From positions 1-10,861 of IMG/VR virus record IMGVR_UViG_2713896896_000006: a DNA stretch of 10,861 nucleotides; one strand, written 5' to 3'. Below, one piece after another: positions 7,195 through 8,347 of this stretch; the first letter of the stretch is position 1, and every line of letters starts with the position of its first letter. This DNA is from a virus (lineage: Duplodnaviria > Heunggongvirae > Uroviricota > Caudoviricetes). The position numbers and the translations under genes are program-made. Under the pieces are notes generated by a model that saw only the letters and a program-made list of their open reading frames with translations, ran no database searches and was not told the origin of the DNA.

Positions 7195-7401
7195 ATGTTA
7201 AATCATACCACACACCCGCAAGGGCGGGACTCGCACGACCTGAATAAATACATCTGGCGTTTTATCGCCCTGAGCACCGCACAACCGCGCGTGATTCACA
7301 TCGTGGCTACCAGCGAACAGGAAGCACGCCAGCAATCCCCGGCTGGCTGCGTGATGGTATTCGCCGCCCGTATTCGTCAGGGGGGGTGCCATGTGCAATA
7401 A
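7195..7401 (+). CDS. Hypothetical protein (68 aa), first gene of the rightward operon
   Basis: GAGGT Shine-Dalgarno 4 nt before ATG 7195; stop overlaps the next ORF's start. Taken as the 3' part of the 6829..7401 track ORF. Confidence 0.4.
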   Translation: MLNHTTHPQGRDSHDLNKYIWRFIALSTAQPRVIHIVATSEQEARQQSPAGCVMVFAARIRQGGCHVQ

Positions 7402-7627
7402 CACCCGTCCGGACGCAGCCGACGAAGCCATCAGAACGCTTATGGACGCGCTGATTAATATTTCTGTTATCGCAGACATGGCGCATAAACACGCTACCAG
7501 TGAAACAGAATATGCCGGGGCTTTCGTTCCTCGCTCACTGGTTGCTATGCGGATTATCGCTGATATGGCACTGAATGAGGCCAGCAAAATTATCATGGCT
7601 GATATGGAGGTGGTGAGCCATGAATAA
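7391..7627 (+). CDS. Hypothetical protein (78 aa)
   Basis: G-rich ribosome-binding site; overlaps both neighbours; helical, acidic composition. Confidence 0.5.
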   Translation: MCNNTRPDAADEAIRTLMDALINISVIADMAHKHATSETEYAGAFVPRSLVAMRIIADMALNEASKIIMADMEVVSHE

Positions 7628-7832
7628 TCATGAAGTGCACTTCTCTGTAGTGCTGAATGTGCCGCCAGATTATACGGGGCGCGTACTGGTGCATCTGGAA
7701 AAAGGCCGGGTTAAATGCCAGTGCCGTTTAATGGAAAATGAATTCGTCAGCACTCTTGCGGGATTTTCTGAAATGCTCACTAAATCGTGTGTTAGTGCAG
7801 ACCAGTTACGCGGGGGCGATTATGCGAAATAA
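7620..7832 (+). CDS. Hypothetical protein (70 aa)
   Basis: GGAGGTGG Shine-Dalgarno; ATG at 7620 overlaps the upstream ORF's last codons. Confidence 0.5.
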   Translation: MNNHEVHFSVVLNVPPDYTGRVLVHLEKGRVKCQCRLMENEFVSTLAGFSEMLTKSCVSADQLRGGDYAK

Positions 7833-8040
7833 ACATGATATTGAAGACCTGGCATTTGAAGCCCTGCACTCTGCGAAAAAAATCAGGGAAGTCGTCAATA
7901 TGTGGATGAACAGCCTTAGCACCGATGAATCCGATAGCAGAGAGGAAATTCTTATTTCTTTGTTGTTAGACCTGGCAAATACACAGGTTTCTCTGACATC
8001 TGATATTGAACTCGCCGCTAAAAATCTGCCTCTGGAGTAA
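7822..8040 (+). CDS. Hypothetical protein (72 aa)
   Basis: Internal ATG at 7822 of the 7738 track ORF, chosen to avoid a long overlap; G-rich ribosome-binding site; acidic and helical. Confidence 0.45.
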   Translation: MRNKHDIEDLAFEALHSAKKIREVVNMWMNSLSTDESDSREEILISLLLDLANTQVSLTSDIELAAKNLPLE

Positions 8041-8047
8041 AAAAAAC

Positions 8048-8347
8048 ATGAAACAGAAAAATTCTGGCTTTACTGCCAGCGGCCTCCCTCGGCCTGAAAT
8101 CCGCCCCGGCGATATTTTCCGGGATAACTACGGCGGCACGGTAACGATTAAAAGCGTGGCGGGACGGTGCGTTACTTACCGCCGTGATGGGTACGGCTAT
8201 GACTGCGTGATGCCTGTTTATCAGTTCCGGCGTGATTTTTCGCTGGTACAGGCCACACCACGCAGACAGCCCACCAGCAACGCAAAGGCACGGGCAAATA
8301 TTCAGAAAATGAAAAACATGATTAACGCATTCAGGGGCACAAAATGA
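8048..8347 (+). CDS. Hypothetical protein (99 aa)
   Basis: ATG at 8048 preferred over the track's TTG at 8006; GGAG upstream; stop overlaps the rep start (ATGA). Confidence 0.5.
   Translation: MKQKNSGFTASGLPRPEIRPGDIFRDNYGGTVTIKSVAGRCVTYRRDGYGYDCVMPVYQFRRDFSLVQATPRRQPTSNAKARANIQKMKNMINAFRGTK

Follow-up and report, generated by a model that had tools for sequence, protein, structure and literature searches.

The stretch of DNA analysed here, referred to below as the window, comprises 10,861 nucleotides (nt) of the IMG/VR virus record IMGVR_UViG_2713896896_000006. Its gene content identifies the element it carries as a Gram-negative phage-inducible chromosomal island (PICI) of the helper-embedded type, located in the terL gene of a lambdoid prophage. 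This agrees with a first-pass annotation of the window, which had described a satellite with five small open reading frames (ORFs) between a repressor-controlled divergent promoter and a replicase gene. The five ORFs, of 68, 78, 70, 72 and 99 amino acids (aa), are present at positions 7195-8347 as that annotation had stated, all on the plus strand: ORF1 (7195-7401; Shine-Dalgarno (SD)-like run GAGG), ORF2 (7391-7627; GGGGGGG), ORF3 (7620-7832; GGAGGTG), ORF4 (7822-8040; GGGGG; its ATG lies within a longer ORF of 100 aa) and ORF5 (8048-8347; GGAG; its ATG lies within a TTG-initiated ORF of 113 aa). The annotation had also considered them translationally coupled, each with its own ribosome-binding site (RBS). 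This is supported: every ORF has an SD-like run, the junctions ORF1/ORF2, ORF2/ORF3 and ORF3/ORF4 overlap by 11, 8 and 11 nt, respectively, and ORF5 overlaps the replicase gene rep by the 4 nt ATGA (rep start at 8344). ORF4 and ORF5 are separated by a gap of 7 nt.

Several lines of evidence show that the five ORFs are genuine genes. Firstly, the NCBI pipeline also annotated these five genes in the island of Escherichia coli clone D i14 (L001), which is 95% identical. Secondly, the ratios of nonsynonymous to synonymous substitution rates (dN/dS), calculated by the Nei-Gojobori method against related islands, are 0.13-0.49 for ORF1, 0.19-0.50 for ORF2, 0.13-0.18 for ORF3 (informative pairs) and 0.23-0.44 for ORF5. 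Because these values are below 1, ORF1, ORF2, ORF3 and ORF5 are under purifying selection, which is three- to five-fold more relaxed than that on rep (0.06-0.11). ORF4 is the least secure gene of the five, because it yielded a single informative comparison (0.77, with 20 differences); its frame, start and SD run are kept in all 13 homologues. We consider it very improbable that some or all of these ORFs are chance open frames. The ORF4 ratio with its few homologues and the presence of long ORFs on the opposite strand (7198-7596 and 8018-8356) would fit such a view, but ORF1, ORF2, ORF3 and ORF5 match profile families with E values of 1e-17 to 1e-41, their dN/dS values lie at 0.13-0.5, the AlphaFold2 models of ORF2 and ORF3 are confident, ORF4 matches phrog_2196 with its frame intact in all homologues, and starts, SD runs and overlaps are kept over 111 loci. 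The overlapping arrangement is likewise beyond chance. The predicted isoelectric points divide the products into basic (ORF1, 9.5; ORF5, 10.6) and acidic ones (ORF2, 4.8; ORF4, 4.6).

These 111 non-redundant loci were obtained by using a conserved leader motif, which retrieved at least 120 IMG/VR contigs, and by chaining the ORFs downstream of it; cassette families were assigned by seed-based domain labelling. The loci share one layout, consisting of the leader, an Icd-like gene (the ORF1 family), one to five shuffled small cassettes, the gene for RgdR (the ORF5 family) and a replicase gene. The Icd-like gene comes first in 100 of the loci, RgdR was found in 84 and a replicase-sized protein was reached in 104. 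Of 441 junctions, 320 overlap and 93 more have gaps of 0-15 nt. In the annotated islands, too, the genes for the Icd-like protein and for the DUF4222 protein (RgdR) are fixed ends with one to four differing small genes between them and differing replicases after them. Gene order, coupling and family memberships are thus shown. The first-pass annotation had made its case depend on conservation or a coding signal across related islands, and both are found, in the dN/dS values below 1 and in the order kept over the 111 loci. Some part of the block is present in 1868 of 5426 complete E. coli genomes, and the exact combination of the window in 42. The block therefore belongs to a known kind of element, of which it is a widespread, ordinary and previously annotated part. 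E. coli very commonly carries PICIs, and none of the literature searched studies these genes, which lie between the switch and the replicase, within the life cycle of the satellite.

Upstream of ORF1, a sigma-70-like promoter is located at 7049-7078 on the plus strand (TTGACA, 18 nt, TATGTT; 10 of 12 consensus matches). It is overlapped by a perfect 14-bp inverted repeat at 7054-7067 and 7087-7100 (ATGTGTACACCTAT / ATAGGTGTACACAT, 100% complementary), which is presumably the operator of the ribbon-helix-helix (RHH) protein encoded divergently. This putative repressor of 64 aa (6861-7055, minus strand) is Arc/HicB/YlcI-like and matches phrog_228, an Arc-like repressor family, with an E value of 9e-6 and Pfam HicB with one of 0.003. 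The -35 sequence TTGAC is kept in the related islands; the operator sequences differ. In L001 and in three further related islands (L003-L005) a gene of the YlcI/YnfO family occupies the place of the RHH gene. The other repeats found at the same place, together with the differently annotated repressor genes, suggest distinct immunity specificities among these islands. The O157:H7 island (L002) contains, at about 2760-2860 on the minus strand, an unannotated RHH-like N-terminus (MRLPEDFRAQLEEAAKADG...) that is divergent from the Icd-like gene and is covered by a stretch carrying the annotation of an Icd-like pseudogene; this island thus probably has the same repressor-operon switch.

The leader between this promoter and ORF1 has features of an RNA encoded on the opposite strand. 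The 70 nt preceding the ORF1 ATG are strongly conserved, even where the Icd-like proteins are only about 50% identical. Here we identify a candidate cis-antisense small RNA (sRNA) of about 80 nt (approximately 7116-7198, minus strand), located opposite the leader, SD run and AUG of ORF1 and predicted to form two hairpins. The 5' hairpin holds the complement of the ORF1 AUG and SD run; the 3' hairpin is GC-rich and, with the U-rich tail that follows it, resembles an intrinsic terminator. The minimum free energy of segment 7116-7198 is -38.6 kcal/mol on the minus strand (z -4.8), with two hairpins, against -23.7 kcal/mol on the plus strand (z -2.0), and the leaders of L004 and L002 show the same strand bias in folding. 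Among 99 unique leaders, the minus strand is the more stable one in all 99, by a mean of 11 kcal/mol, and two hairpins are always predicted. Moreover, the 12 pairs of the GC-rich hairpin (plus-strand positions 7126-7158) are standard in 100.0% of cases on the minus strand and in 89.7% on the plus strand over these 99 sequences; the plus-strand mismatches are all A.C or C.A, which correspond to G.U on the minus strand. Three compensatory pairs are seen on the plus strand, and none of 500 shuffles reaches the observed covariation. In an alignment of the whole RNA (16 sequences), 97.4% of the cells pair, with four compensatory pairs and frequent G.U pairs, whereas slid controls pair in 33-57% and none of 500 shuffles attains the observed score. 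The structure is conserved in at least 120 satellite contigs. Based on its position, the candidate RNA would probably gate the translation of ORF1 and, via coupling, that of the whole operon.

Regarding the affiliation of this RNA, Rfam contains no family that it matches above threshold. C4, isrK and c4-a1b1 RNA were found neither in the window at E <= 1 nor in six related loci, whereas P4 gives all three, and no literature was found on CP-933C together with an sRNA. The Rfam model Plasmid_R1162, the copy-control antisense RNA of RSF1010, produces a sub-threshold match on 7124-7196 of the plus strand (16.5 bits; gathering threshold 55), which is probably due to chance. The two have the string GCGYCUAACCACCAA in common, and the replicase of the island is an RSF1010 RepA-type helicase. 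SymR, which covers symE, and the R1162 countertranscript are, like the candidate, structured antisense RNAs of about 75-80 nt with two hairpins over the RBS of a gene for toxicity or replication; their target genes are unrelated to those of the window. Because the scores against both models are far below the gathering thresholds, we regard this as an architectural resemblance and not as family membership.

The first gene, ORF1, matches the Icd-like model NF033153 (71.1 bits, cutoff 25, E 5.7e-20, residues 19-62) and phrog_6196 (E 1e-41). The first-pass annotation had recognised no motif in any of the five ORFs, which was incorrect for ORF1 as well as for ORF5 (PF13973, see below). The former "cI ORF" of satellite P4, of which Kil is a part, is recognised by the same NF033153 model with 73.9 bits, and the label "transcriptional repressor" that PHROGs gives to the ORF1 family probably traces to the annotation of that ORF. 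We therefore assign ORF1, by homology, to the Icd-like family, whose members are considered small inhibitors of growth or division. No literature was found that ties a PICI to a cell-division inhibitor. Among GenBank phage records, the only match of ORF1 is a 16.5-kb capsid-forming PICI that was deposited as a phage (L007; LR881103.1, "Escherichia phage vB_KppS-Ant"). The genes of this record correspond to a capsid-forming PICI (integrase, Icd-like gene, small ORFs, primase, capsid, portal and connectors), and the leader hairpin is present as well. The ORF1 frame is open further upstream, as a TTG-initiated ORF of 190 aa (6829-7401) across the leader, the promoter and the divergent gene; extended "Icd-like" annotations are found elsewhere, with 134 aa in L005 and 324 aa in vB_KppS-Ant. 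We rejected such an N-terminal extension as a non-coding annotation artefact, because it spans the promoter and because the length of the leader loop differs by 1 nt between islands.

An Icd-like gene also features in a recent study of E. coli strain ECOR61, in which the phage protein orf24 triggers growth arrest, suppressor transposon insertions map to an Icd-like gene and to the two small overlapping ORFs after it, and six genes in linkage, one of them for a primase, were required to reconstitute the effect (Silas et al., bioRxiv 10.1101/2023.04.06.535777). In size and order, these genes would match a succession such as Icd, a 61-aa ORF, cassette family E, a 73-aa ORF, RgdR and a primase. 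On these grounds, the ECOR61 "prophage superinfection-exclusion system" may represent the early operon of a satellite similar to the one analysed here. These results raise the question of whether the block serves abortive infection or superinfection exclusion as a type I toxin-antitoxin module, in which ORF1 would be the toxin, the cis-antisense RNA the antitoxin, and proteins of an infecting phage the trigger. The suppressor insertions, the need for all six genes, primase included, and the way in which the candidate RNA covers the ORF1 RBS, as SymR does that of symE, with sub-threshold SymR matches, are in line with this explanation. On the other hand, the ECOR61 module is identified by gene sizes and order only, the SymR score is far below the Rfam gathering threshold, and the transposon insertions are polar on rep, while uncontrolled PICI replication is itself toxic (PMC6092414). 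Because of this polarity and toxicity, induction of the satellite explains the ECOR61 phenotype equally well, and we consider a dedicated exclusion module rather unlikely.

At the other end of the block, ORF5 matches PF13973 (DUF4222) over residues 16-68 with 86.1 bits (gathering threshold 27, E 1.2e-24) and, on the basis of this homology, is a protein of the RgdR family. It is 70-96% identical to the RgdR proteins of the O157 and CFT073-like islands, with 70% identity to the O157 protein, both having 99 aa. Residues 20-22 of ORF5 and of its L001 counterpart read P20-G21-D22, where the O157-type protein has R-G-D; the RGD tripeptide is thus absent here. The sequence pattern of ORF5 suggests an SH3-like beta-barrel. 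RgdR was described in 2012 as a 99-aa protein of O157 O-island 51 that activates LEE1 and type III secretion, represses motility and binds DNA non-specifically (PMC3378721), and it has been reported in all E. coli PICIs analysed (PMC3378721, PMC6092414).

The gene that follows, rep (8344-9759, plus strand), encodes 471 aa, consisting of an N-terminal domain of about 140 aa and a RepA-type AAA_25 helicase (PF13481, E 5e-44; phrog_2850, E 1e-252); residues 1-140 (8344-8763) have no match in Pfam. RgdR lies directly before a replicase in 74 loci, with a 4-nt overlap in 71 of them. The N-terminal domain is present in all 74 of these replicases, whereas the C-terminal module varies and resembles the AAA_25 part of the window rep in only 19; where RgdR is not directly upstream, the N-terminal domain was found in 8 of 30 loci. 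This pairing suggests a functional link between RgdR and the initiation of replication, although adjacency alone could account for it. The pairwise identities of RgdR and of the N-terminal domain correlate with r = 0.37 in a mirror-tree comparison, the highest value among the modules compared and yet a modest one; such a weak correlation led us not to claim co-evolution. In some loci, for example L016, the N-terminal domain may correspond to an independent ORF of about 115 aa that separates rgdR from the helicase gene. A contig scan with the RgdR alignment gave only three loci, the peptide patterns being too specific.

Based on this linkage, ORF5, and possibly ORF4 (cassette family D), might be dedicated replication accessory proteins, comparable to P4 Cnr, which acts on the replicase alpha; as a cofactor that binds the origin or as a regulator of copy number, they would act on the N-terminal domain of the replicase. 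This is a possibility to which we give limited weight. The ATGA junction in 71 of the 74 loci, the N-terminal domain that is retained whatever helicase or primase module comes next, the succession of family D and RgdR in 42 of 45 cases, the non-specific DNA binding of RgdR and the same position of Cnr in P4 all speak in its favour. Conversely, RgdR shows no homology to Cnr, the few leader-bearing islands that have a true Cnr homologue include one that also has RgdR, the co-variation is weak, and the published RgdR phenotypes concern host transcription and not replication.

The three ORFs in the middle are, by profile comparison, members of PHROG families to which no function has been assigned, so that in this respect the earlier view of the block still applies. 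ORF2 belongs to cassette family A (phrog_5146, E 7e-36) and has 170 homologues in Escherichia. Its AlphaFold2 model (mean predicted local distance difference test score, pLDDT, of 85) is a two-helix hairpin; all Foldseek matches to the PDB had E > 1 and reflect a generic helical hairpin only. Within ORF2, an internal repeat at 7466-7607 consists of three imperfect copies of a 16-nt unit (ATTATCGCTGATATGG), which encode a recurring I-A-D-M-A motif on both helices of the predicted hairpin. ORF3 belongs to cassette family B (phrog_340, E 2e-17) and is predicted to form a beta-hairpin with helices. An exhaustive HMMER search with ORF3 gave 24 matches at E <= 0.001 among 1.8 billion cluster representatives. 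Four long repetitive ones (612-2002 aa) were judged spurious from their multi-repeat sequences; the others are standalone proteins of 49-99 aa. Relatives of ORF3 occur in 11 temperate phages among the GenBank phage records, including phage LMessi, where the relative is one in a series of small overlapping genes that follow the genes for CI/CII-like regulators; ORF2, ORF4 and ORF5 have no match in these records. ORF4 is a distant member of family D, as indicated by a weak match to phrog_2196 (E 2.4e-5), by the hhalign comparison with the O157 family D member (E 3e-4), and by the fact that both D seeds match proteins in related loci.

Over the 111 loci, the middle genes belong to families A, B, C, D and E and to unclassified others, in an order that varies and with B sometimes duplicated. 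Family C nearly always occurs with A (26 of 28), A is often followed by C, and the two are fused in six loci; family D is followed by RgdR in 42 of 45. Thus, ORF2, ORF3 and ORF4 come from a pool of some 5-10 small families, which undergo shuffling, duplication and fusion from island to island. The profile and fold searches that the first-pass annotation had proposed yielded families for ORF1 and ORF5; for ORF2-4, neither the PDB search, the fold search nor PADLOC provided a function. Sequence searches of PDB chains, single and profile-based, returned no relatives of any of the five ORFs, and a word-indexed homologue search returned close Escherichia relatives only. PADLOC-DB 2.0 contained no model that matches the five ORFs or rep at E <= 0.1.

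It is possible, by analogy, that ORF2-4 manipulate the helper or the host; indirect evidence comes from P4, in which the helper derepressor epsilon is encoded at the syntenic place, and from ECOR61, where a comparable block headed by an Icd-like gene arrests growth in response to a phage protein. The first-pass annotation had regarded the five ORFs as candidates for phage-interference or anti-defence functions. In this view, ORF2-4, and possibly the block as a whole, would act as effectors against phages, helper or defences and would not belong to the replication programme; a helper derepressor comparable to P4 epsilon or a protein that inhibits defences of the host would be examples. The variable and shuffled composition of the cassettes, the selection that is relaxed relative to rep, the small, acidic and helical character of ORF2 and ORF4, the relatives of ORF3 among small hypothetical genes downstream of CI/CII-like regulators in a temperate phage, and the syntenic position of the gene for epsilon in P4 are all compatible with such a proposal. 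However, no homology to P4 epsilon or orf151 was found, none of the five ORFs matches a PADLOC defence model, and no fold match was informative. In addition, the known interference and packaging genes of E. coli PICIs lie downstream of rep, which also disagrees with the earlier suggestion that packaging redirectors or capsid-size modulators reside in this block. Effectors in place of a replication programme are thus conceivable but in our opinion improbable.

Comparison with known elements places the block more precisely. The E. coli PICIs EcCICFT073 and EcCIEDL933 (O-island 51, CP-933C; Flockhart 2012, Fillol-Salom 2018) have the same succession of an Icd-like gene, small genes, DUF4222/RgdR, a replicase, a hypothetical gene and a gene for a single-stranded DNA-binding protein (SSB), and also carry the integrase and an AlpA-like gene at the left end. 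They differ from the window in their cassettes (A-B-D in the window; B, an A+C fusion and D in the O157 island), in their repressor and operator alleles, and in their location, since EcCICFT073 and EcCIEDL933 occupy a chromosomal site and the window island a prophage terL. Helper-embedded PICIs have been divided into Integration, Bro, Replication and Late zones (Tommasini, Mageeney & Williams 2023, PMC10111431). The first three of these zones are common to the window. In that study, the small genes that separate the Bro zone from the replicase are not described, and the immunity RNAs that it reports are only of the C4/isrK type, which is absent from the window.

The left operon of P4 comprises the promoter PLE, seqA, the CI RNA, kil, eps, orf151, cnr and alpha. 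As in the window, a small Icd-like protein (Kil) is encoded first in an operon of small genes whose last member is the replicase gene. A regulatory RNA is present in the leader of P4 and, as a candidate, in that of the window, where it is cis-antisense and encoded on the opposite strand. Alpha-type primases follow 62 of the related blocks, a few islands have a Cnr homologue, and homologues of epsilon and orf151 were absent from the 111 loci. The P4 features seqA, C4-family CI RNA, sid, delta and psu are absent here, so that the element does not classify as a P4-like satellite. By homology, then, the first gene of the PICI operon, and in many cases also the last, has a counterpart in P4, whereas the middle genes and the immunity RNA have none. 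A further parallel is provided by the immI region of phage P1, in which the C4 antisense RNA blocks the translation start of icd, and the overlap of stop and start codons makes ant dependent on icd. The C4 RNA of P1 arises by processing of the operon transcript, being encoded in trans on the same strand and further upstream. An Icd-family gene comes first in both P1 immI and the window, whereas the candidate RNA of the window is encoded opposite its target and the downstream genes do not encode an antirepressor.

Taken together, we consider it likely that the five ORFs are the promoter-proximal half of a helper-induced early (replication) operon of the PICI that is gated at ORF1, with the roles of the individual products derived from their families and positions. 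The operon would consist of the promoter with its RHH operator, the structured leader, icd-like, the cassettes ORF2-4, rgdR, the replicase gene and ssb. Upon induction of the island, the operon would be transcribed, and translation would begin at ORF1 and be relayed through the overlapping stops and starts to rep. Because the stop and start codons form such a chain, one gate at ORF1 would control all genes up to rep; this gate at the ORF1 RBS would be made up of the RHH repressor and a constitutive cis-antisense RNA, the latter setting a threshold for the entire operon, a principle also seen in P1 (C4 RNA, icd, ant). ORF1 would then arrest the division or growth of the host upon derepression, ORF5 would assist or tune the initiation of replication, with its effects on host gene expression being by-products, and ORF2-4, which are small and mostly acidic, could be protein-binding takeover factors or modulators of the helper.

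A more specific version of this early-operon model, which we put forward only tentatively, is that an undescribed, constitutive antisense RNA of about 80 nt prevents expression of the Icd-like toxin, the cassettes, RgdR and the replicase for as long as the helper has not activated the forward promoter. Together, the Icd-like protein and the RNA would form a switch similar to a type I toxin-antitoxin system, by which satellite induction is coupled to growth arrest of the host, and ORF2-4 would be takeover factors directed at helper or host.

Several observations weigh against the early-operon model or parts of it. The antisense promoter consists of an extended -10-like element only (TATGAT after TGG, on the minus strand over ORF1 codons 3-5, 7 nt from the complement of the AUG and present in 48 of the 99 leaders), and a scan for two hexamers missed it. 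At 21.7 bits for the window and 32.9 bits for L004, the matches to Rfam SymR (RF01809) stay below the gathering threshold of 61. Alternatively, the hairpins on the minus strand could belong to the 5' leader of the mRNA for the divergent repressor or form an element of single-stranded DNA. Induction of EcCICFT073 has been ascribed to AlpA (Fillol-Salom 2018, PMC6092414). With respect to the individual genes, the growth-inhibitor role of ORF1 derives from the naming of its family (P1 Icd, P4 Kil), the coding evidence for ORF4 is thin, and RgdR shows both a modest correlation with the N-terminal domain and no homology with Cnr.

The strand-specific leader RNA and the linkage between RgdR and the replicase are the parts of this region that most deserve experiments. 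The fixed gene order, a first gene in common with P4 and P1, and a conserved strand-specific RNA over the first RBS make the region testable. Hypotheses follow as to how Gram-negative PICIs stay silent, how the host is arrested when they are induced, and why RgdR, known only as a virulence regulator of enterohaemorrhagic E. coli, is universally kept beside the replicase.

The remainder of the window accounts for the classification of the island. The presence of an integrase, a co-oriented alpA-type regulator and a replicase of its own corresponds to a Gram-negative PICI, and a truncated terL directly before the integrase, with lysis genes and terS upstream, to the helper-embedded type. The phage genes upstream of the island, in the same orientation as the integrase gene, encode a lysozyme (598-1131), the lysis protein Rz (1376-1891), a DUF1441 terS-like protein (2424-2918) and a terL fragment (2918-3913) that retains only the GpA_ATPase domain and ends 160 nt before the integrase gene. 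The latter (4075-5313) forms the left end of the island; in L004 the same integrase lies beside an annotated incomplete terminase. It is followed by the co-oriented gene for the AlpA-like regulator (5326-5529; phrog_66, E 9e-7; Pfam HTH_17, E 0.004) and by that for a Bro-N protein (5588-6169).

Between the Bro-N gene and the repressor gene, the minus strand encodes a predicted membrane protein of 147 aa (6386-6829), with a terminator-like hairpin at 6345-6363. Its sole family match is a weak one to PADLOC HEC-01B (E 0.035), and it may be an accessory or cargo gene. Downstream of rep, a gene for a hypothetical protein of 83 aa and the SSB gene (TIGR00621 ssb, E 2e-16) occupy 9961-10631 on the plus strand, and the same pair is found in L001-L004. 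The window ends at 10861, before the late zone; in L001, the genes for capsid, decoration protein and terS lie downstream.

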